Origin: Craspedostauros australis
Lineage: Eukaryota
Length of the DNA stretch: 55,415 nt
Direction: 5' to 3'
NCBI GenBank assembly: GCA_030167865.1
Contig: JALAGF010004817.1
Span: forward strand, 62,001-117,415
In this document: piece after piece, positions 4,919 through 21,655 of the stretch
Layout of the letters: every line of letters starts with the position of its first letter
Numbering within the stretch: position 1 is the stretch's first letter
Translations under genes and position numbers: made by a program
The notes under the pieces: generated by a model
Database searches by the model: none
Seen by the model: only the letters and a program-made list of their open reading frames with translations
Told to the model about the DNA's origin: nothing

Positions 4919-5887
4919 TTGGTTGGTGGCCAACTTGGGGTTGTGCAGAATCGCGGCGAACCTTCAATCATCAACTCTCCGAAATCGATGGAGGCAAGAA
5001 ACAAGGCGGTCACCGTGCGCGCGAATGCAAAAACACACAAGAAGGCGAGCGCGACGATGCGAAGCGTTGCCGCCTTGGTTGTTTGTGGCATTTTTTTGAA
5101 TTGTGGCGCGCCTCTTCTGCCATTTGAGTTCGGCACTACTTCAGTACTATACCCGTTACAAACGGTCATCAGGTCAACCCAAATCGCCGAATCTCACAAA
5201 CGGCGCCATTCATCCTCTATTTTTGTGATTGACGTTCGGACGTTGACGCCAATGGAGAGCCGATCGCAGGGTGGCTGAGGTGCAATGTTGCGGTGCGGTC
5301 ACTCGACTTCACTGTGCTCATGATTCAACAGACAACCATCCCAACTTGACAAGGACGGATGCTCTATCCATGCATTCTCCCTCTCTCGAGAGTGCTTGGG
5401 TGTGGAGTCTTCGTAGTGTGGAGAGCATAGTCGTAGCAATGCGATGATACGTGGAGGCACGGAGCTGGACAATTCACTTCGCTTCTGTCCCACTATGCTC
5501 TATTGCTCCACAGTGTGTACTCGTTGTGGATATACTGTTGTGGTATTAATCATTATAATAGTGGAGTAGAATAGGGATAGTGAATTTGGTTGTGCAACGT
5601 GATGTGACTTGACATCACGTGATTCGGATGATTCAGCAGAGTATCAATGCAGTCGATGATTAGCTGTTTTTGGACTCAAGGTTTCCATGCTGCCGTCGTG
5701 ATTGGACCTGGGAGGTTGCACACCTCCTCCAGGTGTTTGCGGTTGCCAGTGTCATATCCTCGCATCGTCGTGGTAGAGTATGTGCTTGGTGTTGTTGCGG
5801 TGTTTGTTGAATGGAGAAGGTTGATCTAATGCTTGCCTTGATTGGCGTCGATGGCAGCACAAAATTGGCATTTGCTGCTCCACATTC

Positions 5888-7328
5888 TTAGTCTTCAGCA
5901 CTCTTAATTCCAAGCGTCGATCGGATGGTGCATATCAGTGCCTCTCTGGCCTCAATGCCGGTCTCGGCCTGTTCGATCGAGGTCTTATTGAATTCGTCAG
6001 TGTACTCTTTGATGTGGCCTGCCTTTGCTGCTTTTGATCTTGACAGCTCGCCGCACTCACGGGTTTGCGGGTCCACAAAGAGCAGCTCCTGCCCCACCTC
6101 GTTCTTGGAGCGCTTCTTCAATGAAACGCCCCAGAGGTTCTTGACGGCCGCTTCCTCCTCCAGGGTCACTTCATCCAGATCCTTCACAGTCTTCTGAATC
6201 ACCAGCTGCGTGGCGACGCCCAACGTCGGGTGCTCCTTCAGCTTCTTCACGAGGGCGCTCTTCTCGGTGTCGTCACGCACGGCGCCCTTGATCTTCAGCT
6301 CGCTGCCGTCCGGTGTGATCAGACCCTCCTCGAGGGCGTCATCGCGCTCCATCTCGAAGACGGACGCCGTCTTCATGTCGACGAAGATGATTGGATCTGG
6401 CTCTTCCTCTGGTTCCTCCGCGAACTCGCGGCATTTCAACATGACTGAAATCGGAGGTTGTTGTGGATTGTGTTGTCATGGCAGTGTTGGAATTGTCAGT
6501 ATTGTCAGTATTGTCAGTATTGTTGAAGATGATGAGCAGCGCAGTGCAATGAGGTGAGGGGTGTGTTGCTTGTCACAGCTCGTACGCGACGAACGAAACA
6601 ATGCTGGCATAGCTCATAACAAAGCACAGAAAACAAAGCATTGAAGCTCAGGTCCAATCTGATTCAACACAGAGTAACGCAACACAACGCAACGTAACAC
6701 GACGAAATACACGATACAACGCCACATGCAACGTACCTTCGTACAGCCCCAAGTCGGCCATGACGTCGCAAAATCGCTGCAGCTGCGTGCCGTACCCGGT
6801 GAAGAGCTCGAGCTGCTGCTTGTCGGCGACTTCCGTCAGCTTCTCTTCACGGAACAATGTGAGCACCTCATTGATGTACTTCATGCGTTCGTACTCCTCG
6901 AATCCGTCACGCACCAGCACGGCACCGAGCTGGTACTTGGTGAATTCCCGTCGCTTCTCATCCTGACTGGTGGCGGGGATCAGCTCCTCGGTGGCCTTGA
7001 CGAGTCGCTCCAATTCCTTGCACAGCTCGTTGAGGGCGTTGCGCCCCTTGACGGTCACCTTTTCGTTCGTGAGGCTGCCATCGGAAACAAAGCCCTCCAC
7101 CTTGGTCAACCGGGCGACGAACTGCGCCATCTCCTCGCCAAACTCCCTGTAGGCCTTGTCACCGATCTCGATGCCGTCGGACTCCAGCAGACTCTGGAAT
7201 CGGGAGAGGAACGAATTCTTCCATCGTCGGAATGCCTTGAAGGTCTGGACGAGATCCAGCTTCTCCAACAACCCGCGCAGCTCGGGGTCGAATTTCAATG
7301 GGTTTCCTGCCTGATCTTTGGATGCCAT
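5888..7328 (-). CDS. Two-exon hypothetical protein (382 aa): helical N-domain plus the C-terminal duplicated 'FxD...VKNLWGVxLKKR' domain
   Basis: join(7328..6737, 6444..5888). Donor GAAG|GTACGT and acceptor TTTCAG|TC restore the frame (...GLYE-V-MLKCRE...). The C-terminal half aligns by eye with the C-terminus of the 19055-20800 protein. Confidence 0.85.
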
Positions 7329-8007
7329 GGTGCTGATGCCGATAGTGATGCTGATGCTGATAGTGATGCTGATGTCGTTGTCGTCGTAATTATGGAAGCG
7401 CAGGATGCGTTGCGACGCGATACCGTATTGCGAGGTTCGTTCTGTGGACAAGCAGTGGTGTTGTGCGTAGTCGTGGTGTGACTCTGTGTTGGTGTGTATC
7501 GCCTGCATCGACGGTCGGAGAAGCCCCTCCGGAAAGACCGCCAATCGTTGATCGTCGATTGTCGTGTCGAGAGGTGGAGCTTCCCAGCCCGTCTGTGGTT
7601 GTTGGCTGGCTCTCCGGAGCGGTGGCGCACAAACAGATCCAGACATCGTCGTTGTTGCGCTTTTGTGGCGAAAGCAGTATCTTTCGGGTCATCACGACTC
7701 ACATCAGATGACCATCATGTTCGTCCCAACGAGAGACACGAGCGATTCATTCTTCGCAACGAAGTCTACCCATCATGCAACTAGGATGAAGGTGGAATAC
7801 GACTAGTCGTACTCGTGTGGTGCGAGCACGGGAGAGTGTCCGATACGAACCACCATTCGCATTAACCATAGTTCGTGCAATGCATATGATAAGAGTTAAG
7901 CATCTGCTACCATTTTTATGCCCATGAAGATTTCCGAGTGAAACACATCCGAAGTTTCCACAATTCATCAGCTTGCGCAGACATGACATCGAGTTGACAA
8001 ACTCGAG

Positions 8008-9807
8008 CTACAGCACGATGTCCTCATCCTCCTTGATTGGCTTGAATGCAGGCATGGTGTAGCTGAGATCGATCTCTGGTTCGATGACGACCTCTGGTTC
8101 CGGCGGTGGGTTGTTCCTCAGGAAGTTCTGAAACTGTCCCAGCAGATCCTTTGCCAGTTTGCCATGACCGGGTTCGGAGATCAACCGCATCATCCAATCC
8201 ACGCTGTTGCCGCTGGTTCGATACAGGCAACCGACCAACAACGCCGTGTATTTGTCCAGCTCTTGCGCATTCGTCAGGGTGTAGGTCATAATGTCACGCT
8301 TGGCTGCGGTGTCGTACAGGTGACAGGAAGCGCGCGAAACATCATCCAGCTCCTGCCCCGAGTACGAATTGATCGTGATGCCAAGATACAGGATGCTGGG
8401 GTCGATGTCGCTCAGCTTGAGACGGATCGTCTCGTCGTCTCCAGCCGATGCACCGCTCCGCTCGTCCCCGGAATGCTGGATGGCACCATCATCGGACGTT
8501 TTGCGGTTGAAGAACACCTGATCCTTCAGGCTGTAATCGGCGCCCAGGCACAGAATGCTAGCGTCCAGGTCGATGTTCGCTCCGTTGGTGATATCCCACG
8601 CGAGCCCGAAGCTCAATTCGCGGAATGTGGCATTCTCCACATCCTCCGTCTGCGAGAACTCTTCACGCAACGACCGCGTGCCAAAGTCTCGCAATCGGAT
8701 GACGCCGTTCTTGCGCATGACGGCAATGCGCTCGCCCGCATCGATGTCGATGTTGGGTAGTAGGTCTCTCGTGAATCCCTTGACGTGGGGGATGACGGAT
8801 CCGAAGTCCCGCGCGTGCGGATCACCAACCTCGAGGGGGCACAGCATCCAGTCGTCCGACGTCGTCGAATCGCGTGCCAAGCGAGCGAGGAACATGGTGG
8901 AGAATGGTCCCCGTTCGGATGGGACGAACTGGCAAATGGGCTTCCCGCTACCGCTCCCGTTATTGTGGCCCGGAGCTCCCGTCGCTGCCGCTTGTTTGCG
9001 GTAGATGTTGACCCGGGTCGATCGGACCTGCTCCAGGGTCTTTTTGGGCGTGGCAACGCTCAGTATGATGTACAGTGCGAGGACGTTGGACGGGATGCGG
9101 TTGAGCTGCACGGAAATTCGCTCATCGTCACCGGACGATTCACCTGTGCGCTCGTCGCCGCTGTGGGTGATGGAGCCATTCCGGTTGGACAAGTTCCCGT
9201 AGTACACCGTCTCATCCATGAGGAACTTGCCGTTACGATCCAGGGCCACGCAAGCCGCGTCCAGGTCCACCGCGTTCTTCAAATTGAAATCGGCATCCCA
9301 GGCCAACCCGACATCGATCTGCGAGGATTGGACCGGGATCATGTTGCCCGGGACGATGCTGAGCGGCTTGTCGATGCTCACGGAGACCAGGAGTTCGCCG
9401 CTCGCATTCTTGCAGAAGTGCGGCTTGGCACCATTTGTGACGGTGTGCCATTTCTGCGATGAAGGAGAGTCGATGGGAACGTAGACGGATCCCATGGCAT
9501 CATTCGACCCGACCAAGTCGCGGTCGTAAATGACAAGCAGCAGAGAGGAGTTGGGGCCGCCATTGTGCTTCTGCTGCTCACGGAGAATGAGATCGAGTGG
9601 GATCTTGAAGGACTGTTCCCAGGTCGGTCCAAGGGTCCTTGGCTTCGTCTGCGTCTTGCCCAGCTGTTGCTTCGAATCGTTGTGAGCGAAGATCTGAACG
9701 TAAGGATCGGACGTCGTCTTCTTTCCAAGCATGTTCTTGTCCTTTGCCACGAGATTGCGTCCGGCATGGACGGTGATGGTCACCGATGGGGCATTGGGAT
9801 TTACCAT
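8008..9807 (-). CDS. C2 domain plus tandem TerD domains protein (599 aa)
   Basis: C2: VTITVHAGRNLVAKD...SDPYVQI...KTQTKPRTLGPTWEQSF...IYDRDLVGSNDAMG. Two TerD copies: GLAWD...VDLDAAC...HSGDERTGESSGDDERI and GLAWD...IDLDASI...HSGDERSGASAGDDETI. Start MVNPN at 9807 follows a repeat-rich leader. Confidence 0.92.
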   Translation of the reverse strand: MVNPNAPSVTITVHAGRNLVAKDKNMLGKKTTSDPYVQIFAHNDSKQQLGKTQTKPRTLGPTWEQSFKIPLDLILREQQKHNGGPNSSLLLVIYDRDLVGSNDAMGSVYVPIDSPSSQKWHTVTNGAKPHFCKNASGELLVSVSIDKPLSIVPGNMIPVQSSQIDVGLAWDADFNLKNAVDLDAACVALDRNGKFLMDETVYYGNLSNRNGSITHSGDERTGESSGDDERISVQLNRIPSNVLALYIILSVATPKKTLEQVRSTRVNIYRKQAAATGAPGHNNGSGSGKPICQFVPSERGPFSTMFLARLARDSTTSDDWMLCPLEVGDPHARDFGSVIPHVKGFTRDLLPNIDIDAGERIAVMRKNGVIRLRDFGTRSLREEFSQTEDVENATFRELSFGLAWDITNGANIDLDASILCLGADYSLKDQVFFNRKTSDDGAIQHSGDERSGASAGDDETIRLKLSDIDPSILYLGITINSYSGQELDDVSRASCHLYDTAAKRDIMTYTLTNAQELDKYTALLVGCLYRTSGNSVDWMMRLISEPGHGKLAKDLLGQFQNFLRNNPPPEPEVVIEPEIDLSYTMPAFKPIKEDEDIVL

Positions 9808-10294
9808 GCTGTTTGCGTTTGTGTATGCGTTTGTGTATGCGTATGCGTAGTGTACGTGTGAAGCGCTGGGATGCTGTATTGGTAGAGTAGGTCGTATTGT
9901 CTGTGTCTTCTTGTTGACTTTATGAGCGAGGATCGAGATCTCTCTGCTCCTCCTCTCTTCTCTGTCTCTGCTTTGTGCTTTGTGTGGTGGATCTGTCAGT
10001 TTCATGTGATGCCCATCAAGGTCGCACATACGATTCAAATGGGCAGTTGACTTTCCACGACTCATACGCGCAGATTCAATCACGTAAACGAAAGAATGAA
10101 ACACGACAAAGACTCGACTTTGCTTGCGCAATCGCGATACCCCTCACTCAGTGCAGGTGACTGCCCCCAAGAGAGGATGCGGTGACGAGGTCGCAGTCAA
10201 ACGATCATGATTGCTGAGTGCTGTATGAGTTATATCATGCCATAGATCGGAGAGTACCATAGAGTGCATGTACCATGTGCATGTACTCCCCATT

Positions 10295-13200
10295 CTACTT
10301 CTTGCGGCCATTCGGATTGACGTAGGACGCCGTTGCATTTCTCGGAATTCTGGTGCGATCAATGTAATCATGCGGTTCTGCGATGGAGGATTCGACGCGA
10401 CGGTCGATGGTGCCATCTGCTCGTTCGATCTTGGTGATCGTCTTGAATTCCAGGCGCCCATCGTTGTGCTCCATGAACTTGCTCTTCATGCTGACGGAGA
10501 GGGGCTCAGGTGCACGGGGGTCCTTCTTCTTGACCTTTTTGAACTTGCCCTTCTTTTCCTCCACGATGCCGAATTCGTCGCGCATGACACGGTTGTACAC
10601 TTCGAACGCATCGTGGAATTTGGCCACGCGTGCGTTGTTGGGAGGCTGCTTGTGCTGTGTTGGCATTGGTGATTTGGAATTGGACGCTTCTGGATTTCGG
10701 CGGCTCTTGCCGTTCAACGGTCCCATCGACTTGGATGTCTGCGGTGCCATGCTGCTTATCCTCTTCTTGAAGCGACCAGGAGATGAGGGAGCGTATCCAA
10801 CGCTTGGCAACGAGCTGCGTCTCTTTGCTTGTTGCTCATTTTGCGATTTGCCGTTGTTCTGCACGGGTGGCGGAGGCGGTGGTGGATTGGTGCCGTTGCT
10901 GGATTTGCCTCCTCCGAACATAGACGACACCTTTTGTCGCAACCGACCCGGTGACGTCCCGCGTTGCGGCACGGACGATTTGGCATTCCTTTGTGGCGTC
11001 GGTGGGGCTTGCTGCTGTTGCTGATGCGCCACTTTCTGCTTGAATTTGCCAGGTGAAACGGGGGCTTGCTGCTGATGATGATCTTTGGTTCTGTGGCTGA
11101 AGGATGAAGGTGGGTTGGCGGGAACATGTCCCGCGGAATTCTGCGGTCTGTGGAGATGGCTGAAGGATGAGGGCGGATTGAGCGGAATGTGTCCACTTGG
11201 AGCATGCATGGAGGCGTGTTTGGGTGGATTGTCCGCGCGTTGCACTCTTGCATGCGCAGATGACGAACGCAGCGGTTGGTTGCGCATATCCTCCGTGAAT
11301 CTGGTTCTGCCACGTTCTCCATTGCCGTAATTGTTTGGCAGGTAGGATGGTCCTCCCCCCTGCCCCGGCTTTTGTCCATTCATCGATCCGGCAAGACTTC
11401 CATTTGGATGGCCAGGTGCGAAAGCGGTTCGTTGTCCATGCATGGATGAGCTGAGATTGGCCTGCGGGTGACCGTGCGGTTGCCTCATATCATTGCTGTG
11501 GTTGAAGTTGGGTGGCATCGGAGTTCGCGCTGGAATTGGTGCCGCCTTCGCGGCCTTGTCCTTCTTCTTCGTTTTGGAATCCTTCTTTTTCTTTCCTGCA
11601 GATTTCGTGGACTTTGTGGTGGCCGGGGTTTCGTCATTGTCGCTATTGAAATATTCATCGTCACTTTTGGAAGCTGATCGCTTCGCGTTCTTTTTCTTTT
11701 TGGTGGTCTTGGTGGTGGCCTTCGTCGTCGCTGGTGCGGTTCCACTGGCGGCCTCCGCTGCACCGTCCTCCTTCTTGACTTTTAACTTCTTTTTCTTCTT
11801 CTTGGTACCGTCCTTCTTTCTGGCGTTGCGATCCAAGGAACTGCTGCGCCGCGCTTCCCTCTTTTTCTTATCCGACCGCATGGAGCGGACGCTGTTGGAT
11901 GACGTGTCTACCTCCGTCATGGAGCTGCGCTTCTGGTAGGATCTGGTGGAATGTGAGCTGGAGTTCAACGGATCACGGTCTCTGCGCGGGACGTTGAAGC
12001 CGGTGTCGCGCAGATTGGTAAATCCGTACGCCGTGGACGGTGCTTTCGAATGAGATTTGTGAACGCCGGCCTTGTCGTCGTCCGACGTGTCAACTTCGTC
12101 ATCTTCCTCCGGATTTTGCTCGTGTTCGGACGACGACCACGAATCAGCCGAGGATGATTTTTGGTGCTTGGAAGGCTTGACTTGCTTCTTCTTGTGCGTG
12201 CCATTGGATGCTGGTGCGGAATAGGAATACGTGGTGTCTGGCTTGTGCGTGTGCGTGGTTGGCTTTGCCGTCTTGGTTGCTTTCGCTGTCTTTGCTGGAA
12301 CGTTGGAGGTCTCGCCTGCGCCAGCAGATGTGGTGGAATAAGAATAAGGGGTGCTCTTGTGGCTGGATTTGGTGTCGGTCGTGCGTCCATTCTGCGAAGC
12401 CGCCGTCGATTTCTTGACCTTGGCAGCCGGCACGTTGCTCGTCGTTTTATCTCCGGCACCTGCGCTCGCGTAGGAGTAGGACGTGTTCGATTTCGCTTTT
12501 GATTTGGCATCGTCAGCCTTGTTCGTTGATTTGGAGGTCGTCTTTTTGGATGGTGGTGCAGCATAGGAATAGGAAGTGTCAGGTCTGGTTGGTGATGGCG
12601 ACCTCGATGATGAAGGTGATGGTACAGGCGATGGCTTGGGGCTCGATGGAGGCGTTCTGACCCTCGTTGTGGTGAAGGGAGAGTGCGGTCTGAACGTGTG
12701 AGAATAGGTGGATGGTGTCGGAGATGATGGGGCTGACGGTGGTTGCCTGTGAGGGGAACGCGATCTATCCTTGCCATTGTAATTGCCATTGTAGTTGCCA
12801 TTGTGGTTGCCATTGGAGTGTGCGCTTTGTTTTGGCGACATTGGCGGAGATTTCGGCCATACGTGCGGCTTTGCCTTTGGTTTTGGAGATGCCGGTGGCG
12901 TTTTTGGTGACTTTGGCGACTTTGGCTGGGTTTGTGGTGCAGCCTTGGGTTTGGGAGATCGTGGCGGTGATTTCGGAGCCGAGGCTGATGGTTTGGCTGC
13001 AGCAGGTGTTGGTTTAGGTGCTGGTTTAGGTGCAGGCTTTGATGCTGATGTTGACGCCGATTTGTTCATGTTCATGTTCTTATCCCAATCCCTGTTGAGC
13101 AGATCGAAGTCCCTCTTCTTGATGGGATCCGTGAGCATGTGATAGGCAGCGGACATCTTGGCGAAGACAGCATTGGCAGTGACCTTGTCCTCCTCCGTCT

Positions 13201-13315
13201 TCTGCCGATCTGGATGATGCTTCAGCGCCAGCTTGCGGTAGGTGGACTTGATCTGCGATTCCGTGGCATCCTTGGCGACGCCCAGCACGATGTACGGGTT
13301 TTCATTCTTCTCCAT
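10295..13315 (-). CDS. DnaJ/Hsp40 J-domain protein (1006 aa) with very long disordered linker and DNAJB6-like C-terminus
   Basis: N-terminus NPYIVLGV...IKSTYRKLALKHHPDRQ...FAKMSAAYHMLTDP has an intact HPD motif. C-terminal FHDAFEVYNRVM and a beta-rich tail SVSMKSKF...TITKIERADGTIDRRVE. Confidence 0.9.
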   Translation of the reverse strand: MEKNENPYIVLGVAKDATESQIKSTYRKLALKHHPDRQKTEEDKVTANAVFAKMSAAYHMLTDPIKKRDFDLLNRDWDKNMNMNKSASTSASKPAPKPAPKPTPAAAKPSASAPKSPPRSPKPKAAPQTQPKSPKSPKTPPASPKPKAKPHVWPKSPPMSPKQSAHSNGNHNGNYNGNYNGKDRSRSPHRQPPSAPSSPTPSTYSHTFRPHSPFTTTRVRTPPSSPKPSPVPSPSSSRSPSPTRPDTSYSYAAPPSKKTTSKSTNKADDAKSKAKSNTSYSYASAGAGDKTTSNVPAAKVKKSTAASQNGRTTDTKSSHKSTPYSYSTTSAGAGETSNVPAKTAKATKTAKPTTHTHKPDTTYSYSAPASNGTHKKKQVKPSKHQKSSSADSWSSSEHEQNPEEDDEVDTSDDDKAGVHKSHSKAPSTAYGFTNLRDTGFNVPRRDRDPLNSSSHSTRSYQKRSSMTEVDTSSNSVRSMRSDKKKREARRSSSLDRNARKKDGTKKKKKKLKVKKEDGAAEAASGTAPATTKATTKTTKKKKNAKRSASKSDDEYFNSDNDETPATTKSTKSAGKKKKDSKTKKKDKAAKAAPIPARTPMPPNFNHSNDMRQPHGHPQANLSSSMHGQRTAFAPGHPNGSLAGSMNGQKPGQGGGPSYLPNNYGNGERGRTRFTEDMRNQPLRSSSAHARVQRADNPPKHASMHAPSGHIPLNPPSSFSHLHRPQNSAGHVPANPPSSFSHRTKDHHQQQAPVSPGKFKQKVAHQQQQQAPPTPQRNAKSSVPQRGTSPGRLRQKVSSMFGGGKSSNGTNPPPPPPPVQNNGKSQNEQQAKRRSSLPSVGYAPSSPGRFKKRISSMAPQTSKSMGPLNGKSRRNPEASNSKSPMPTQHKQPPNNARVAKFHDAFEVYNRVMRDEFGIVEEKKGKFKKVKKKDPRAPEPLSVSMKSKFMEHNDGRLEFKTITKIERADGTIDRRVESSIAEPHDYIDRTRIPRNATASYVNPNGRKK

Positions 13316-14624
13316 CTTCGCCTCTGTTTGGTTGTTGTCTGCTTACGAATGGGAGTGGGAGTGCTAGTGCGAGTGCCAGTGCGGATGGGAGTATGAGCGC
13401 GAGTATGGACGGGATCGAGGAGAAACGGCAGTCGTTGCGGCACTTCTTGATGTGGCAAAATGGTTGGTCACTGAGATTGGACTGCTGGATTTCTGGATGG
13501 ATGTGAGATCCCGCTGTGCTCTTTCAGATTGTGGTGTGGTGCCAATACAGTCTGCGACTGCTGTCTCTGTGGGTGCGTGTGAACTCGCAGGCTCCTTGGA
13601 TCAGCGAGAGTTGGTGGCTGGGCGAGTGCTCGAGCGCTTGAGAATCCGCTCCCGTTTTCGCTTCCGATTTCACTCTTTCTTGGTTGCTCTTCGAGGGTAG
13701 CACGACCTATCCGCAGCAATTCTCAGTGGATCCCTGCACGCCTCCAACCTGCACGCTCCTGCCTGCTCAATGCCGTTGATTCCAAATCAATGCAGTGTAC
13801 AATAGACAGCAGTAGATGATGTATGCAAGGTGTTTGAAGGTTCAGCGTCGTCTCTGTTGTTGCTTGTTGCCGTGTTGTGGTGTTGTGGTCATGCCATCCA
13901 TTGTGTTGTTCGTACAGTCATGTTCATGGCGGTCATGTCCATGTTGCATCGTTGATGGATTGCGGGAGTGGAACGCGTTGATGGCGCGCTGCATTTTTGT
14001 CCGTGAGGCGCACACGCAGACGCGCGCTCCACAGGTGTGTATCGTCGTTGTCCGCTGTGCCTCGTGGGCCTTTCTTGTTGTGTGTTCGCTGTGTCTCGCC
14101 TCGATTAGCATGAGTCTACCACAAACCAGCCCGCTTACGCGCTAGTAGTTCTCCAACTGTCCTCCTCCCCAGTTTCTGGAACGAATGGCCACACGCTTGT
14201 TAAACACGTGACTCACAACTTCATCGAAACACGCTTGCGCTTTGGGCGTGATATCATCTCCATTTTGTGAATGGAATTCGGCATCATTTACAATCACGAC
14301 TACGGACACAACACAACGGCATCACATCGCCAAAGATTCAGATTGGGCGTTTCTGGTTTCTTCCCGTCGGGCGCTAAGGCAGTGCCTCCAGAGTTTTCTT
14401 CACCAGATTTATTCACGATACCCCTTCGCAAAAAATGCAAGCTGAAAGGGAGTCAGAAAAATCTGGGTTGGACGGAAGAAGCCATCACCTTTTCGGTGGG
14501 TTTGTCGTCACTTTTTGAATCTTGTGAATTTAAGTTACCTAGGTCGAGGTCGCCGAGAAACGGATGAGAAACGTTATTGACGTTGAATGCAATCCGTTGA
14601 AAGCACGGTGCTTATGCAACCCAC

Positions 14625-16430
14625 ATGGCAGTTAACGGCACCGTACCCAACGCACAACAATCTCCAATTCCCACCAAAACGACTCGAAGAAAAAGTTTGG
14701 TGTGGCTTGTGTCAAACTCAACAAAACAAGACAAGAGCAACATGGTGGAGAACGGCAACAGGGAAATTGAAAACGGCACCATGGGCGGAGTTACCGCCAA
14801 CAATGGCGTCGCGAAATTCATCGGTAAAGAGGCCGGGTTGCCGCAACAAGAGTCAGATGAGGTGCCGTCCAGTGTGGTAGAGGCCTCTGTCTGCGATGGC
14901 ACTGCCTCCTTCCTGACGGCTGCTGCGAGGAGCCATCGCACAGCAGGAGCCTCAGCCAAACCAAACAGCGCCAAGACGGCCTCCATCCCATCTCCTTCCG
15001 CCATTGCACTTGCTGCGGCCGAACTGGACGCACTCTTGAACATCTCCAGCGATCGCATCGACGGCAACATCCATCATCCTAGTGCAGACATTGATACGGA
15101 GACAGAGACAACGACAACACCAAACGGGACTTTCGCAGTTGAGGACACAAGCGTACAGGCACACCACAACGACGCCGAAGCCGAAGCCAACGAGCAGCTC
15201 AGAGACAGAGAGGAGGGCAGGGAGCCAGACGACACCGAAGACGAAGATAACGACTACATCTGCATCAACACAGACAGCGAAGAAGAAGAAGAAGAAGACC
15301 ACACAGACAAAGACACTGACGACATGTTCCACAACCGCAACCCCCGAGGTTCGAGAGTGATCCGCCAGGTTGCTCCAGCAGATGGTGTTGCTTCGCATAG
15401 TAGTACAACTAGTCGTGCGATTGCGAGTACTGGTGGTTCCTCAAGTGAGCACCCGCACAAGCACGCACAGGGACATCAGCAGTCCAGCAGGTATGCTTCT
15501 CCCAGTGATGCATCCCACGCACAGCAGCATGCTCGCTGTCACCAGCAGCAGCCGCAGGACGCGCTGGAGGCCATCCGCGCTAGACTGATGCAGGCCAAGA
15601 CGCGCAGCAACAAGGCGCTGGAGGAGCAGCAGAGGATATACTACAATCAGGCCTTGAGGTCGGCCTCTGCCAGTCGCAGCCGCGCATCGACTCAGCGCCC
15701 CTCCTCTTCCCATGTGGGGCAGCTTTCTGAGTCCACACAGGCACATCAACGTCAGCATCAACGTCAACACCAAGAACAAGAACAATCGTACCATCAGCAA
15801 GACCAACAGCAAGAACAAGAGCAAGAGCAAGACCAACAGGCATCACCAGAGTTCGACTTCGACAGCATCGATCTGGATGTGGACAATGTGGAGGACATCT
15901 ACATGATGTCGGTGGGTCTCAAGGAGATGTCCGCCAGCGACAGCGCCAGCTTTTCGGGCAACTACTTCCGCTCCAGCACGGAAAGCATCAGCAGCCACAG
16001 CAAACAACCCCTGGTCTGCAACCGCCACTCGACCACGAGCGTGAGCGGCAGCCACAGCAGCGGCACCGGCAGCGCCCACACCATCAAGACCACCTCCGTC
16101 GGAACCGCGTCCACCGTCTCATCGTACGGTTCCTCAACCAGCTCGCGACGCAGCACGCGCAAACGCCATTCCGGCGCCGCTGCTCGTCGCATGCAGTGCG
16201 GCACGACCACGCAGCTCATCCCCGCCAACGCCGCCATCTTCCAGGACTTCAATGCCGACACTCACAAACGCCAGGACGCCATGATGGGCAACTGGTTCGA
16301 TACCATGCAAGTCGCCACCGAGCTGGCCAACAAGAGCGGCTGGGATGCCAAGACGGGATTCTACTTCACGTCCAACAACGTCTTTCGTCAAGACAACGAG
16401 GCTGATACCGCGCAGTTCGCGTCGCTTTGA
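14625..16430 (+). CDS. Hypothetical low-complexity protein (acidic, Gln-rich and Ser-rich blocks) with a short ordered C-terminal segment
   Basis: 601-codon ORF with coding-like codon usage in the 3' half. True start uncertain. Confidence 0.7.
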   Translation: MAVNGTVPNAQQSPIPTKTTRRKSLVWLVSNSTKQDKSNMVENGNREIENGTMGGVTANNGVAKFIGKEAGLPQQESDEVPSSVVEASVCDGTASFLTAAARSHRTAGASAKPNSAKTASIPSPSAIALAAAELDALLNISSDRIDGNIHHPSADIDTETETTTTPNGTFAVEDTSVQAHHNDAEAEANEQLRDREEGREPDDTEDEDNDYICINTDSEEEEEEDHTDKDTDDMFHNRNPRGSRVIRQVAPADGVASHSSTTSRAIASTGGSSSEHPHKHAQGHQQSSRYASPSDASHAQQHARCHQQQPQDALEAIRARLMQAKTRSNKALEEQQRIYYNQALRSASASRSRASTQRPSSSHVGQLSESTQAHQRQHQRQHQEQEQSYHQQDQQQEQEQEQDQQASPEFDFDSIDLDVDNVEDIYMMSVGLKEMSASDSASFSGNYFRSSTESISSHSKQPLVCNRHSTTSVSGSHSSGTGSAHTIKTTSVGTASTVSSYGSSTSSRRSTRKRHSGAAARRMQCGTTTQLIPANAAIFQDFNADTHKRQDAMMGNWFDTMQVATELANKSGWDAKTGFYFTSNNVFRQDNEADTAQFASL

Positions 16431-16990
16431 TTGATGCAGAGATGGACGAGCAGGATGCTCTGTGCAAATAACACAACAGAGATGAGTCAAGTATTCGTAC
16501 TCATACAAAGTGTGATTGCATGGAAAGGGGAAACAAGATAGGATAGGAGACGATAGATAGGTGAATGTTGCATAAAGGAGAACGAGGAGGACTACGTGCG
16601 TTACATAACATTATATGATATCAAGTCAAGTGAAATGTGGGGATACAATAACAATGAAGACATCAAGTCAAACGATACACGCGCTGCGAGCAATGGCATC
16701 CGCTGGTCTGTTCTGCAGAATGTAGAGTCTACATGTACTAAATCTAGAGAGAAAGAGTTGTCGATGGATTCGATCGAATCCAAGATCGCTTCCGACAACT
16801 CAACTTCCGAAAAGGGTTCTCATCACCCATTTCGCACACAAAGACACGCACAGAAGCGGAGTGAAACAGCCAACTTGATGCAGAGCCTCGATCATCTCCA
16901 CACCATCACAGCACTTCAGGATAGAGCGCTTCGGCTGATCATACTCCTACTCTACCATCGCATCTGCTTCTCGACCCACACAGCATCAGC

Positions 16991-18814
16991 ATGAGGACGA
17001 TGAATCCCTTGATGATCTGCACGTTGCTGCTTTGCAGCTTGCAACAAGCGAGCGCATTCTCCTTGTTGGACAATAGCAGGCGAACATTACAGACACCACA
17101 GACACCACAGACACCACGGCTATCACAGGTATCGCAGCTATCATCATCGCCTTCGTCTTCGTCTTGCGAGCACTTGGATGTCAACACGGACAGCAAGGTT
17201 GCAGCAACAGCGAAAGATGAACCAGCCCAATGTCCATTCTCCAGAGCCTTCCCGCGATATCGCATCGATCTGACGTATCGCAAGGAATCCACCACAAATC
17301 CCAACTTCTTCACGAAGCTCAATCATCAGCGGATCCTGCGACAGCAGCCAAAGCGGGCGTCCAGCAAGGCTCTTGAGATTGTGGAGGTGGCGGATTGCAA
17401 CGGTGTGGAATGCATCACCTATCTGTGGAATGCATTGGCGCAGCGGTTGCAGCAGTCGGACGATAACGACAACGGCAACAACGACGATGACGATGGTGAT
17501 GATGATGTCATACTCTACTTCCCCAATGCTTCGTTTCGATTGCTGGAGAACTGGGTGGAGATCGTGAATTGGATGGTGGATATGTCCACTGTCAAACAAG
17601 GCGAAACTGAACAGCAGGCCATGGACATGTTCGATGGTGCAACCGCGCAAGTGGCCTTGATAAGCCAACAGCAACAACAAGATCAGCAGCGACAGCAGCA
17701 GCAAGAGGAACAATCGCAGACGAGCATCAGCAACAGAAACAAAAACAGAAGAAGGAGTGGCAGTAGCAAAGACGACACCGACGACTTCGTCCCAGCAGTT
17801 CGCATCCAAGTCAGCCGACGAAACGTATCCCCAAATGCTGGCGAGGCAACCTCGCTTGAGACCCCTCCCACATGCACACCGCAGAGCTTGGAACAAAGCA
17901 CCAAGGCATGGGTCAAACGCATTCTGGTGGAACAGGGCATCTGTCCCTTCACCAAGAGCACCACCAAGAGCGGGCAGGGTCTCAAGGATGTCGGCGTTCC
18001 CGTCGGACGCATTGCATACCACTCCTCCATCGCGCCCAAACGCAACGTCGTCCAACTCATGGCCGACACATGGACGGCGATCCAAAAGATGATCCAGGCC
18101 GGACCGGAAGGCTCCAGCGGCGTCAGCAGCATCTTGCTGGCTGCACCCGGTTGGGATGATGACTTTGATTCATGGTCCGGTCCTGTCTTTTGTGTCCTGG
18201 AATCCAGCGTCGTGGCCGCCAATGCGCAGGACCAGATTGGCGTCGTTTGCTTCCATCCGCAGTACGCCACGCCGGACGGTTCCACTTGGCCAGGATTTGG
18301 GCACATGCATTCCGTGCCGCGATTGGAAGAATGGTACAACGCGCATTATGAAATCGAACCGAAACCTTCATCGGCTGTTGTGGCTGATGATGCTGATGCG
18401 ATCAGTGCCGATGCCAGAAATGTCGAAAGTGAGGATCAATCAACGGATACACTGGCAGCAACACCTGCTAGCGATGATGCTCCTGCTCCTGATACAAGTT
18501 TAGAGACAGTCGACACCGCGCAGCCAGCAAAATCACAGCCACCAGCGACTGCGGCGTGCCCGGTGCTTTCCACGAGCGATATTGCAGCAGGTGGTGCATG
18601 GCAACGACGCACGCCGCATGCCACGATCAACGTGCTGCGTGCCGAGCAGCTGGCGGCGGCAGAATCGCGTCGCGCAACACAAAAGCTGTACGCCACCAAC
18701 ATCGACAAGTTCATCAATCAGATCGGCAATTCGCAACTGGAGAAAGATCTGCTGCGGGAGCAATCCATCGCCAAGCCAGCGGCGGCAAGCGGCGCTGGTA
18801 AGTTGGAGCCGTGA
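16991..18814 (+). CDS. Plastid-targeted DUF1415-family protein (607 aa)
   Basis: Signal peptide ending QQASA-F followed by a Ser/Thr-rich transit peptide. DUF1415-type motifs TKAWVKRILVEQGICPF, VVCFHPQY and RRTPHATINVLR. Confidence 0.8.
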   Translation: MRTMNPLMICTLLLCSLQQASAFSLLDNSRRTLQTPQTPQTPRLSQVSQLSSSPSSSSCEHLDVNTDSKVAATAKDEPAQCPFSRAFPRYRIDLTYRKESTTNPNFFTKLNHQRILRQQPKRASSKALEIVEVADCNGVECITYLWNALAQRLQQSDDNDNGNNDDDDGDDDVILYFPNASFRLLENWVEIVNWMVDMSTVKQGETEQQAMDMFDGATAQVALISQQQQQDQQRQQQQEEQSQTSISNRNKNRRRSGSSKDDTDDFVPAVRIQVSRRNVSPNAGEATSLETPPTCTPQSLEQSTKAWVKRILVEQGICPFTKSTTKSGQGLKDVGVPVGRIAYHSSIAPKRNVVQLMADTWTAIQKMIQAGPEGSSGVSSILLAAPGWDDDFDSWSGPVFCVLESSVVAANAQDQIGVVCFHPQYATPDGSTWPGFGHMHSVPRLEEWYNAHYEIEPKPSSAVVADDADAISADARNVESEDQSTDTLAATPASDDAPAPDTSLETVDTAQPAKSQPPATAACPVLSTSDIAAGGAWQRRTPHATINVLRAEQLAAAESRRATQKLYATNIDKFINQIGNSQLEKDLLREQSIAKPAAASGAGKLEP

Positions 18815-19054
18815 TATCTCTTGGTATTATTGACGCCGTGACCAATGCCACATTGAATAGCTGTATTCCATGAGCAAAATAGTAAGAAATAGAACACATT
18901 GCTCTCCTAGCTTCAGTCTACTATATTGGTACACGACTCGTAGTGCGAATACTTTCATGTTGGCGCGCTTGCAAATGAATCTACTATTATTCTACTTTGG
19001 CGGAACGACGAGAACAGCACCGAATCTGGATCATGCATCACAAAGGACCGCACA

Positions 19055-20800
19055 TCAACATTCCAGATGCAACTTGAGCGCTTGCCTCACTTCCTGCGCC
19101 AAGCTCTCGCGCTCGTCCGCCACCACCGTGGCCTCTTCGATGAGCTCGCCGCTTTCCGCTTCGTCCGATGGCACGATCGTCAGCACGCCCTTGTCAAGAC
19201 ACGCCTTGCGCGAAATCTCGCCGATGGCACCGGATCTGGGATCCACAAAGAGGAACTCCTCGCCCTTCTTGTTCTTTTCTCGCTTTTTGAGCTGGACGCC
19301 CCAGAGATTCTTGACGTTCTCCGCCTCCTGCATCTCGATACCGTCCTCGTAGTCGGTCCACTGCTTCTCGGCGATGCGGACGATGCCGATCTTGTCGTTG
19401 CTGGTGACCTTTTCGATGAGCTGCGCACGCTCGATGTCGTTCTTGGCCTCCTCCTTCCAGGAATCGGGAAGCGGTTTGTTGGACTTGGAGGCAAGGTTGG
19501 TTTTGATGAGGATCTTCTGCGCGATGACCTCCTTGCGCGGGATGGAAATGATGGAGGACGTCTTGAAGTCGAGGAAGATGAGCGAATCGCCGGCGTTGAC
19601 GGCGAGGACGTACTTGCCACGGCGTGGGTAGCGCTGGAGGTCCGACATGCGGATGAGCACGCCGTCGTCCTTGAGGGCATCCTTGAACTTTTCCGACAGA
19701 TCTCCCGATTCCAAATCGGGAGACAGCGGGGCCTTGATGGTCTGCTGATTGAGCAGCCGAAGGATGACCTTGAGTTCGTCCGCCGGGACGATGTGCTTGT
19801 AGGCAGTTCGCATGGAGGAGAAGACCGTCTGCGTGACGATGTTGACGCATTTGAAGAAGCAGAACCCGAGATTGAGACTCTCGATGGATTTTCCAGAGAC
19901 GACCAACGCGATATGGCCATACGGCTTGATGACCTCCGCCAATTGATCGAAGAGCGCCTTCTTGGGTTCCGTCAAGCAAACGATGTAGTCGACCGATCCC
20001 GCCTTGCCACCTTCCAACTTTATGCCGATCTCATTGTGCGCGATGGTCTGGAACGCACCGAGCGACTTGCACCATTCCTGCGACTTTCCCGGCGTTGCGG
20101 TCGCGATGACCTTGATGTGCGGATGCCACGCCGCCATGAGGGTGAGGATCCAGCTGCCGACACCGCCGGATCCACCGACGAGCAGCATCGTGGCCGTGGC
20201 ATCCTCAGCAGTGGTCGTCCCGTTGATCGCGATGCCGTTGGAGTGGGTGGATGCCGACGAGAGCGCCGACGCAGACGCGGATGTCGCCGCCACGCCCGTC
20301 ATCTCCATGGTGCCGTTCTGCTTGTCCGAGATGGCAACGTTGTCCCTCACCAAACCTAGCTTGGCCAGCACTTCGTAGGCCGTGAGACCGGCAACGGGGA
20401 TGGTGGCGGCATCCTTGGGATCCACGTTGGGCGGCAGCTCGACGACGCAGCGGCTGTCCACCACGACGTGCGAGGCGTACGATCCAGAGTTGGGCATGCT
20501 GGGGTCGCTGATGAAGCACACGGGCTTTCCCACCAGATGCTGCGGAGCCGACGATGACCCGCCGACCTGCTCCACCACGCCGGTGCCTCCGAAGCCAGGC
20601 ACGAAGGGCGGATTCGGAACCTCCTGGCCTTCCTTGCCGCTGCCGCCGGACAGCTTCTGCAGATCGACGGGGTTGACGTCGCTGTAGGTCACCTTGACCA
20701 TCACATGGTTGGGCTTGTCGCATGGTGGCAGCTGCGCCGACGAACCAAACTCCAGCGCCTTGCTGTACGATCCGTGCGTGGTCGCGCCAAGCCAATCCAT
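19055..20800 (-). CDS. MDR-superfamily (zinc-type ADH-like / quinone oxidoreductase) protein fused to a C-terminal duplicated domain (581 aa)
   Basis: VKVTYSDVNPVD, PGFGGTGVVEQVG, GSYASHVVVD, AATIPVAGLTAYEVL, Rossmann LLVGGSGGVGS, WCKSLGA. No Cys-His zinc ligands, so QOR-type. Extra ~175-aa tail. Confidence 0.9.
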   Translation of the reverse strand: MDWLGATTHGSYSKALEFGSSAQLPPCDKPNHVMVKVTYSDVNPVDLQKLSGGSGKEGQEVPNPPFVPGFGGTGVVEQVGGSSSAPQHLVGKPVCFISDPSMPNSGSYASHVVVDSRCVVELPPNVDPKDAATIPVAGLTAYEVLAKLGLVRDNVAISDKQNGTMEMTGVAATSASASALSSASTHSNGIAINGTTTAEDATATMLLVGGSGGVGSWILTLMAAWHPHIKVIATATPGKSQEWCKSLGAFQTIAHNEIGIKLEGGKAGSVDYIVCLTEPKKALFDQLAEVIKPYGHIALVVSGKSIESLNLGFCFFKCVNIVTQTVFSSMRTAYKHIVPADELKVILRLLNQQTIKAPLSPDLESGDLSEKFKDALKDDGVLIRMSDLQRYPRRGKYVLAVNAGDSLIFLDFKTSSIISIPRKEVIAQKILIKTNLASKSNKPLPDSWKEEAKNDIERAQLIEKVTSNDKIGIVRIAEKQWTDYEDGIEMQEAENVKNLWGVQLKKREKNKKGEEFLFVDPRSGAIGEISRKACLDKGVLTIVPSDEAESGELIEEATVVADERESLAQEVRQALKLHLEC

Positions 20801-21655
20801 GGTGCTTGTTCACTCGACTCCACTCTATTTGATTTGTGTGATGCTTTGGGGAGGTTGTGCAGTTGGATGGATGGATGGATGGATGGATGGCCCTCCATCC
20901 TTCTCTTCCTCTCTTCCTCGCTTGATCGATTGGTCGATTGATTGACCTGGGAATTTGTGACGTTGGGGCCATGGTCACAGTCATTATTCTTTCCGTTCCA
21001 TTTTCCCACTTTTTGCCAGATTTCTGGAGTACTCGAATGAGTCGACAAGATACTTCTCGCCAACCACCCAAAGATCTTTCGTGTCAACTCCGAAACGGAT
21101 TGTCATGGCCACATGTCGGATGGAGCAACCACGGAAAGCAACTGCGCACACACATAATGAGCAATGAAAGGCTTCGGAGAGGGTTCGATGCCATGGATTG
21201 CCATCATCCCATACAAAACAAGCGCAAGCACAAGCGCAAACGCAAGCATGAGGAACCAGAGGAAGCACGTTCCGTGTGCGTTGGGTGCAGCTTGGTTGGC
21301 AGAATCCACGGCGTATCAGTACATCGGCTCGAATGCTGGCGTGGAAGCAGACGACGTAACGAAATGATCTCAGCGTGAGATCCAGCGATGGCGAGAACCC
21401 GCAGGCGAATTGTAATGCAATGGAAACATGCATTGGAGACAGAGAAAGGCAGCGTGGCGTTGGAATAGTGGCGATGGCGTGCTTCACCTTGAATCCTTGA
21501 TGGATGTGGCCGTCAGAAGTTGCCTCTTGGACATAAAAACCCGAATAATCTCTTGTGGTCAACGTCGCCACAGCAACCAGGGATCCACGACGAATTCAGA
21601 TCCAGCAGACTGCAACATTCGCAACAAAACACAAGCGAAAGCCCAACACATCAGG

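Follow-up and report, generated by a model that had tools for sequence, protein, structure and literature searches.

A two-unit C-terminal module of no named family shared by a reductase gene and a helN gene in the diatom Craspedostauros australis

We analysed a 55,415-nucleotide stretch of Craspedostauros australis DNA (GenBank assembly GCA_030167865.1, contig JALAGF010004817.1, positions 62,001 to 117,415 of the forward strand; hereafter the window, numbered from its first letter), in which two minus-strand genes, gene A and gene B, encode proteins with unrelated N-termini and homologous C-termini. The C-terminal part that they share is a module of about 170 residues, itself a tandem duplication of a beta-beta-alpha-beta-beta-alpha unit of about 60 residues. 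It follows a medium-chain dehydrogenase/reductase (MDR) in gene B and, in gene A, an N-terminal helical module of no known family that we call helN. Judged from the sequences collected here, the module ends at least four kinds of protein: MDR reductases, a 2-oxoglutarate (2OG)-Fe(II) oxygenase, helN proteins, and helN proteins with an array of ubiquitin-like (Ubl) repeats. A basic loop before the second unit is the best conserved part of the module, yet the part modelled with least confidence. From these observations we infer a docking function, in which the loop would be the binding site for a common acidic partner.

Results

The two C-termini are homologous

BLASTP aligned the open frames of gene A (5888-6475, minus strand) and gene B (19055-20809, minus strand) at 75.9 bits (E = 2e-20), with 53 identities in 177 positions (30%) and 51% positives, over residues 27-188 of the gene A frame and 408-578 of the gene B frame. 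When the whole window was searched by tblastn, exactly two copies were found (E = 4.7e-19 and 2e-19; next best match, E = 0.36), and the family hidden Markov model (HMM), run on the six-frame translation of the window, also returned two copies only (gene B, E = 4.2e-62, envelope residues 405-584; gene A, E = 1.1e-59). An earlier note, made from the sequence alone, had proposed this shared stretch and cited peptides for it; the BLASTP alignment bears the proposal out, and all of the peptides are present in the translations of the two frames. The note had also held the N-terminal parts to be unrelated and the module of gene A to occupy its own exon. Both points agree with our reading: gene B has an ADH_N domain and a sub-cutoff match to ADH_zinc_N where the N-terminal part of gene A has no Pfam match, and exon 2 of gene A (6444-5891) lies behind a GT..AG intron read from the sequence. 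The features of the two genes are as follows.

6737..7328, minus strand: gene A exon 1, helN, about 197 amino acids; ATG at 7328-7326 and exon end (GAAG followed by GTACGT) read directly
6445..6736, minus strand: gene A intron, 292 nucleotides, GT..AG, phase 1; splice signals read directly
5891..6444, minus strand: gene A exon 2, comprising MLKCREF, an acidic linker and the module, from the translation and the family HMM (1.1e-59); stop codon 5888-5890
6233..6397, minus strand: gene A module unit 1 (exon-2 residues 17-71), beta-beta-alpha-beta-beta-alpha; predicted local distance difference test (pLDDT) score of the block 92-97
6086..6232, minus strand: gene A inter-unit linker, ending in the conserved 23-residue loop AVKNLWGVSLKKRSKNEVGQE (6086-6154)
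5912..6085, minus strand: gene A module unit 2 (exon-2 residues 121-178), from the model; pLDDT 88.4 when modelled alone
19625..20800, minus strand: gene B N-terminal part, MDR (quinone-reductase-like), with ADH_N, a sub-cutoff ADH_zinc_N match and GGSGGVG
19058..19597, minus strand: gene B module, from the family HMM (4.2e-62); stop codon 19055-19057
about 19388-19597, about 19256-19315 and about 19067-19270, minus strand: gene B unit 1, conserved loop and unit 2, respectively
18960..19054, minus strand: gene B 3′ untranslated region, with a probable poly(A) site near 18960

The gene A intron sits at the border of helN and the C-terminal exon. The predicted protein junction (...GLYE-V-MLKCREF...) is unbroken in four related proteins of 346-387 residues (P0026, P0027, P0038 and P0051), and exon 2 thus comprises the last helix turn of the N-terminal module, an acidic linker (EEPEEEPDP) and the whole C-terminal module. 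Because several metagenome open reading frame calls in gene A's clade start at ML[KA]CR (P0042, P0050), their sequences suggest that the intron is kept in that clade. No RNA contig of the two runs searched, X1 and X2, spans the junction. Contigs identical to the window were found in run X1, a poly(A)-bearing set in which both 3′ ends are present (5700-6240 for gene A and 18960-19500 for gene B), so the 3′ ends of both genes are probably transcribed. In the gene B contig a loose TTTTTTTT run stands before 18960 on the plus strand, and this T-run is probably the poly(A) tail of a minus-strand transcript. Run X2, a seawater metatranscriptome, gave mostly fragments of relatives that were 90-95% alike or low-complexity DNA; an 8.2-kb joint in it with a 21-letter side was set aside as odd. 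No signal peptide was evident at the N-terminus of either gene when the translations were read.

Gene B is a single exon (20800-19058, minus strand) encoding the reductase and then the module. ADH_N (PF08240) matched at 3e-9 and 37.5 bits against a cutoff of 23.5, which places the N-terminal part among the MDR proteins; ADH_zinc_N (PF00107) matched at 1.3e-4 and 22.4 bits, under its cutoff of 31.8, and reached 37.1 bits in the orthologue P0017. With these two matches and a GGSGGVG nucleotide-binding motif read in its sequence, the N-terminal part resembles MDR quinone and enone reductases, but gene B adds to them a low-complexity insert of about 45 residues and the orphan C-terminal module. 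Its best NCBIfam match was adh_fam_1 (3.6e-28, under the cutoff of that model), and no NCBIfam subfamily cutoff was reached; the orthologues are labelled 'furan-3-one reductase' and 'NADPH:quinone reductase' by their sources. The insert (20300-20440, minus strand) is rich in Ser, Ala and Thr (…TGVAATSASASALSSASTHSNGIAINGTTTAEDATAT…), lies between the catalytic and cofactor-binding domains, and differs from or exceeds that of P0017, which is from Seminavis.

The module is an internal duplication with a conserved loop

AlphaFold2 modelled exon 2 of gene A from a 78-row alignment with a mean pLDDT of 83.5 and a predicted template modelling score of 0.76, giving two equal units at residues 18-71 and 120-178. 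The model elements run in the same order in both, with strands at 18-23 and 28-33, a helix at 34-40, strands at 44-46 and 48-53 and a helix at 59-71 in unit 1, and strands at 120-125 and 130-135, a helix at 136-141, strands at 147-149 and 155-157 and a helix at 164-178 in unit 2. The halves matched each other in hhalign (probability 99.0%, E = 3e-18, 58 columns). The unit-1 HMM found unit 1 of gene A at 5.8e-22 and the unit-2 HMM cross-matched it at 9.7e-9; the values for gene B were 1.8e-20 and 7.6e-25, with cross-matches of 6e-11 and 7.9e-4, so that across the two window genes each HMM recognised the opposite unit at 6e-11 to 7.9e-4. On these three grounds (the match of the halves, the cross-matches and the two-unit model), the module is a tandem duplication of its unit. 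Three natural proteins (P0094, P0100 and P0101) have a single unit, and the loop is absent from them.

The loop is the last 23 or so residues of the linker, (A)VKNLWGVSLKKRSKNEVGQE, with the family consensus WGVxLKK[R/T]xKNxKGEE. Its mean entropy was 1.24 bits, versus 2.1-2.3 elsewhere in the module and 2.2-2.3 within the units, and its block pLDDT was only 49-72, the lowest in the model. W105, G106, V107, L109, G118 and E120 are nearly invariant. The loop motif was present in 119 of 146 proteins (LKKR in 68, LKKT in 21, LKKV, LRKT and LKST in 6 each, and others in 12), the mean net charge was +2.7 over 12 residues, and in the gene A model a short helix (residues 98-102) precedes L-K-K-x. High conservation together with low pLDDT is what a binding loop that becomes ordered on its partner should show. 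Within the units, the polar residues D-x-K-T...R are conserved in both.

Searches for known families and folds

The module matched no named family, as the earlier note had supposed. With hmmscan, the gene A module gave only BON_like in Pfam (E = 0.23-0.27; 11.6-11.8 bits against a cutoff of 24.1). No Pfam family was common within the module among 29 members searched at E ≤ 10, and the ubiquitin matches, in 4 of the 29, lay in the upstream repeats. The best match of the module profile to PDB sequences had E = 0.26. Foldseek matched neither the whole module (best, E = 1.3) nor unit 2 alone (best, 0.98) at E ≤ 1e-3. VIA-align of the whole module against 48,161 chains reached at best Z = 3.0 (6akj_B, root-mean-square deviation 6.3, 72 residues aligned), and unit 2 alone reached Z = 2.2, with the MazF-type chains 5xe2_A (deviation 2.9, 50 aligned) and 4mzm_A (2.7, 49 aligned). 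The ESM Atlas gave no usable feature match for the module or for helN, and its structure rows were all at a template modelling score of 0.32 or less; its own model was poor (pLDDT 0.44). Thus, no known fold was found with the predicted models, and the fold is possibly new, although an absence of fold matches does not prove this.

Two leads to known domains gained no support. A degenerate ubiquitin-like unit was not supported by hhalign, in which unit 1, unit 2 and the whole module matched an alignment of 150 of the 296 collected Ubl repeats with probabilities of 0.1-0.5%; no ubiquitin structure was among the fold-search matches. GYF domains have the topology beta-beta-alpha-beta-beta, and the units resemble them in the order of their secondary structure and in a hairpin-G...helix...G-hydrophobic pattern. 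However, neither GYF nor GYF_2 (PF02213, PF14237) matched any of the 29 members, the GPF...W...GYF signature is absent from the alignment, and no GYF structure appeared in the Foldseek or VIA-align rows. In the literature, full-text searches that excluded supplements found no description of the module or of diatom proteins joining helN to Ubl arrays. In our rating, the domain family is undescribed, and its general kind, the lineage-specific promiscuous adaptor module, is a familiar one.

Distribution and architectures

The module is rare: a profile search of 1,835,955,588 representative proteins found 73 at E ≤ 1e-3, 63 at E ≤ 1e-10 and 22 at E ≤ 1e-30. Organism names occurred among the relatives for two raphid diatoms only, Seminavis robusta and Nitzschia inconspicua, which are also the closest named relatives of the window, a stretch with short GT..AG introns. 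The module ended no more than 24 residues from the C-terminus in 101 of 103 proteins, the two exceptions being poor fragments. The 103 proteins had the following architectures.

MDR reductase and module: 29 of 103
helN and module (gene A type): 16 of 103
helN, ubiquitin-like repeats and module: 11 of 103
Ubl repeats and module, N-terminal end undetected, probably truncated models: 17 of 103
2OG-Fe(II) oxygenase and module: 1 of 103 (P0076; PF13640, 2.8e-8)
Short fragments: 29 of 103

P0076 (496 amino acids) is a second enzyme class bearing the C-terminal module. The Ubl arrays had from 2 to at least 19 detected repeats, with the top counts in proteins of 2199 and 2358 residues, and a di-Ubl period that measures 147 residues. 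Gly-Gly was not seen at the ends of the repeats, which are on this evidence probably non-cleavable. A metagenome search with a two-row alignment gave three confirmed loci from at least 595 pattern matches, all of the poly-Ubl type (L001, L002 and L003), and each encodes helN and the module along with a Ubl array. In L002 an uninterrupted frame of 1154 amino acids (7037-10501) has the Ubl array exactly between the acidic linker and the first strand of the module. Gene A looks like this type of gene with zero repeats. The sources of several helN-Ubl-module proteins, including P0045, P0074 and P0077, label these 'polyubiquitin' or 'ubiquitin family protein', and both labels mislead.

HelN had no Pfam match, and its best match to PDB sequences had E = 0.76. 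It heads 28 longer proteins, and 15 of 43 further proteins that were fetched have helN without the C-terminal module, so helN is itself a shuffled orphan module of the N-terminus. Among the helN proteins without the C-terminal module (P0132-P0147), some have Ubl repeats only, P0136 has a CN-hydrolase domain and P0138 has FG-GAP repeats. Several others of this set, of 1300-1660 residues, have no Pfam match at all.

Relation of the two neighbouring genes

The earlier note had taken the module to be shuffled between genes and A and B to be, possibly, a co-located two-gene system. The first part stands, in that the module is real, unnamed and found on at least four kinds of protein; the second is not supported. 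About 12.6 kb separates genes A and B and contains four unrelated genes (C2 with TerD, DnaJ, a low-complexity open reading frame and DUF1415). The module of gene B was 50-59% identical to its counterparts in the MDR-fusion orthologues of other diatoms, versus 30% to the copy in gene A, which excludes a recent exchange between the neighbours. In a tree built from 82 modules of nearly full length, with 21 partial modules excluded, gene B fell inside a 29-row MDR clade (Shimodaira-Hasegawa-like approximate likelihood ratio test, SH-aLRT, 99) and gene A in a separate 7-row clade; since the gene B copy nests among orthologues from other diatoms, the MDR fusion is old. The best tree joined the MDR clade to a helN clade other than that of gene A (SH-aLRT 99). 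Sister status of the gene A and MDR clades was not rejected by the approximately unbiased test (difference in log likelihood 20.1, P = 0.22), and the tree therefore cannot settle the order in which the two module clades arose.

We think it very improbable that a joint function holds A and B close to each other. In its favour, the two are among few family members and stand near each other, for which a rough, uncounted estimate of chance is about 1%, if a genome of tens of megabases is assumed to contain only a few paralogues, and the sister arrangement of the two clades is not rejected. Set against this are the four intervening genes, the place of the gene B module in the tree, the L002 locus (19.8 kb), which has a single module gene and no MDR, and an effect of selection, as the pair was noticed for falling in one window. 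The upstream regions of A and B have no k-mer of 9 or more bases in common, which is a weak test. The closeness of A and B is either chance or an old remnant, and has no part in the mechanism proposed below.

Three of the intervening frames can be described further. One (8008-10143, minus strand) holds a C2 domain (8e-15) and two TerD domains (2e-54), joining a eukaryotic membrane-binding domain to a bacterial-type tellurite-resistance or calcium-binding domain. Another (10295-13342, minus strand) is a frame of 1015 residues in which a DnaJ domain at the N-terminus precedes a very long low-complexity region rich in Pro, Ser and Lys. The DUF1415 frame (16925-18814, plus strand; 2e-13) has long low-complexity extensions at both its N- and C-terminal ends.

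Discussion

The explanation that we favour, and to which we give about half of our confidence, is that these proteins share a module for docking or localisation, the loop of which binds a common acidic partner or surface. A unit of some 60 residues was duplicated in tandem to give a probably diatom-restricted module of two units, and this has been fused to the C-termini of an MDR reductase, a 2OG-Fe(II) oxygenase, helN, and helN with Ubl arrays. The flexible basic loop, with its Trp and polybasic run, would be offered by the two folded units to one shared acidic partner or surface, which may be a patch on a protein or an acidic membrane, and in this way unrelated cargo proteins would reach a single place. 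Membrane-binding segments that combine a polybasic run with aromatic residues are known from the effector-domain type of MARCKS. The loop is like them in its conserved Trp and hydrophobic residues beside a Lys/Arg-rich run, its net charge of about +2.7 and its low model confidence, and unlike them in being conserved far more strictly in sequence and spacing than is usual for such segments. Several points weigh against a docking module. The low pLDDT of the loop may be a mere failure of modelling, and the D-x-K-T...R residues could line a small-molecule site, as would fit a regulatory domain on two enzymes. Furthermore, most members are metagenome or transcriptome records, and the case for a restriction to diatoms is drawn from two named species together with shared architectures.

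We consider it unlikely, though worth keeping in view, that the module instead binds itself, so that the MDR reductase, the gene A protein and the poly-Ubl proteins co-assemble into mixed oligomers. This would be the physical form of what the earlier note described as linking an oxidoreductase and a scaffold. An internally duplicated, pseudo-symmetric module that is common to enzymes and repeat scaffolds, and whose conserved loop is unmodelled in the monomer, would suit such assembly; the natural single-unit variants tell against it, as they lack the loop, which is therefore not needed in every member of the family. A regulatory domain that senses a metabolite and tunes the attached enzyme, in the manner of ACT or CBS domains, is a doubtful prospect. 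Its fusion to two classes of oxidoreductase and the D-x-K-T...R residues of both units are what such a domain might show. However, only 30 of the 103 proteins have a recognised enzyme part, whereas 44 have helN and/or Ubl repeats and 29 are short fragments, and no ACT, CBS, BON or other Pfam match was obtained, BON_like being the nearest.

The only named hosts are gliding raphid diatoms, and for this reason an actin-binding module is of interest, in which the loop would act as a WH2- or thymosin-like helix with LKK[T/V/R] and tether its cargo to actin. We hold this to be very unlikely. LKKT is given as the G-actin-binding sequence of WH2 domains in one source (PMC7407642). Like WH2 and thymosin-beta4, the loop has a short helix and then L-K-K-[T/V/R], in what is probably a flexible segment, and 27 of the 119 motif-bearing proteins have LKKT or LKKV; unlike them, it has a nearly invariant W-G-V before the Leu, and its basic run is followed by G-E-E. 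LKKR is the commonest variant, WH2 (PF02205) matched none of the 29 members at E ≤ 10, the upstream hydrophobic register differs from that of WH2, and the motif lies between two folded units and not in a long disordered region.

The nearest functional analogy to the docking module that we favour is the dockerin. Dockerins are bacterial, extracellular, calcium-binding helical pairs, and their partner is cohesin. Like the module, they are small, internally duplicated and C-terminal, and the parallel extends to its occurrence on diverse catalytic domains and on a tandem-repeat scaffold; there is no similarity of sequence or fold, and the module is a eukaryotic pair of alpha/beta units that is putatively cytosolic. 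Taken further, the analogy would cast the module as the 'dockerin' in an assembly of the cellulosome kind, one that is cytosolic and confined to (raphid) diatoms, with the basic loop docking on the Ubl repeats, a speculation to which we attach very little probability. If it were true, enzymes including the reductase of gene B and a 2OG oxygenase would line up on a poly-Ubl scaffold whose length could be adjusted, from 0 to about 19 or more repeats, and a scaffold having both repeats and module would cross-link itself into a multivalent network or condensate.

Diatoms have many lineage-specific genes of unknown function. The present analysis defines one well-bounded orphan domain family among them, with its boundaries, internal repeat, conserved loop and confident models, and since neither of the two predicted models has a clear fold match in the PDB, the family merits a Pfam entry and an experimental structure. 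It belongs to a mix-and-match set of three parts, namely helN, Ubl arrays of very variable length and the C-terminal module, and at least two oxidoreductases have been recruited to this set. Should the module prove to be a common address tag, finding where it localises would reveal a diatom-specific cellular site or assembly and the reason for which a reductase and an oxygenase are directed to it.

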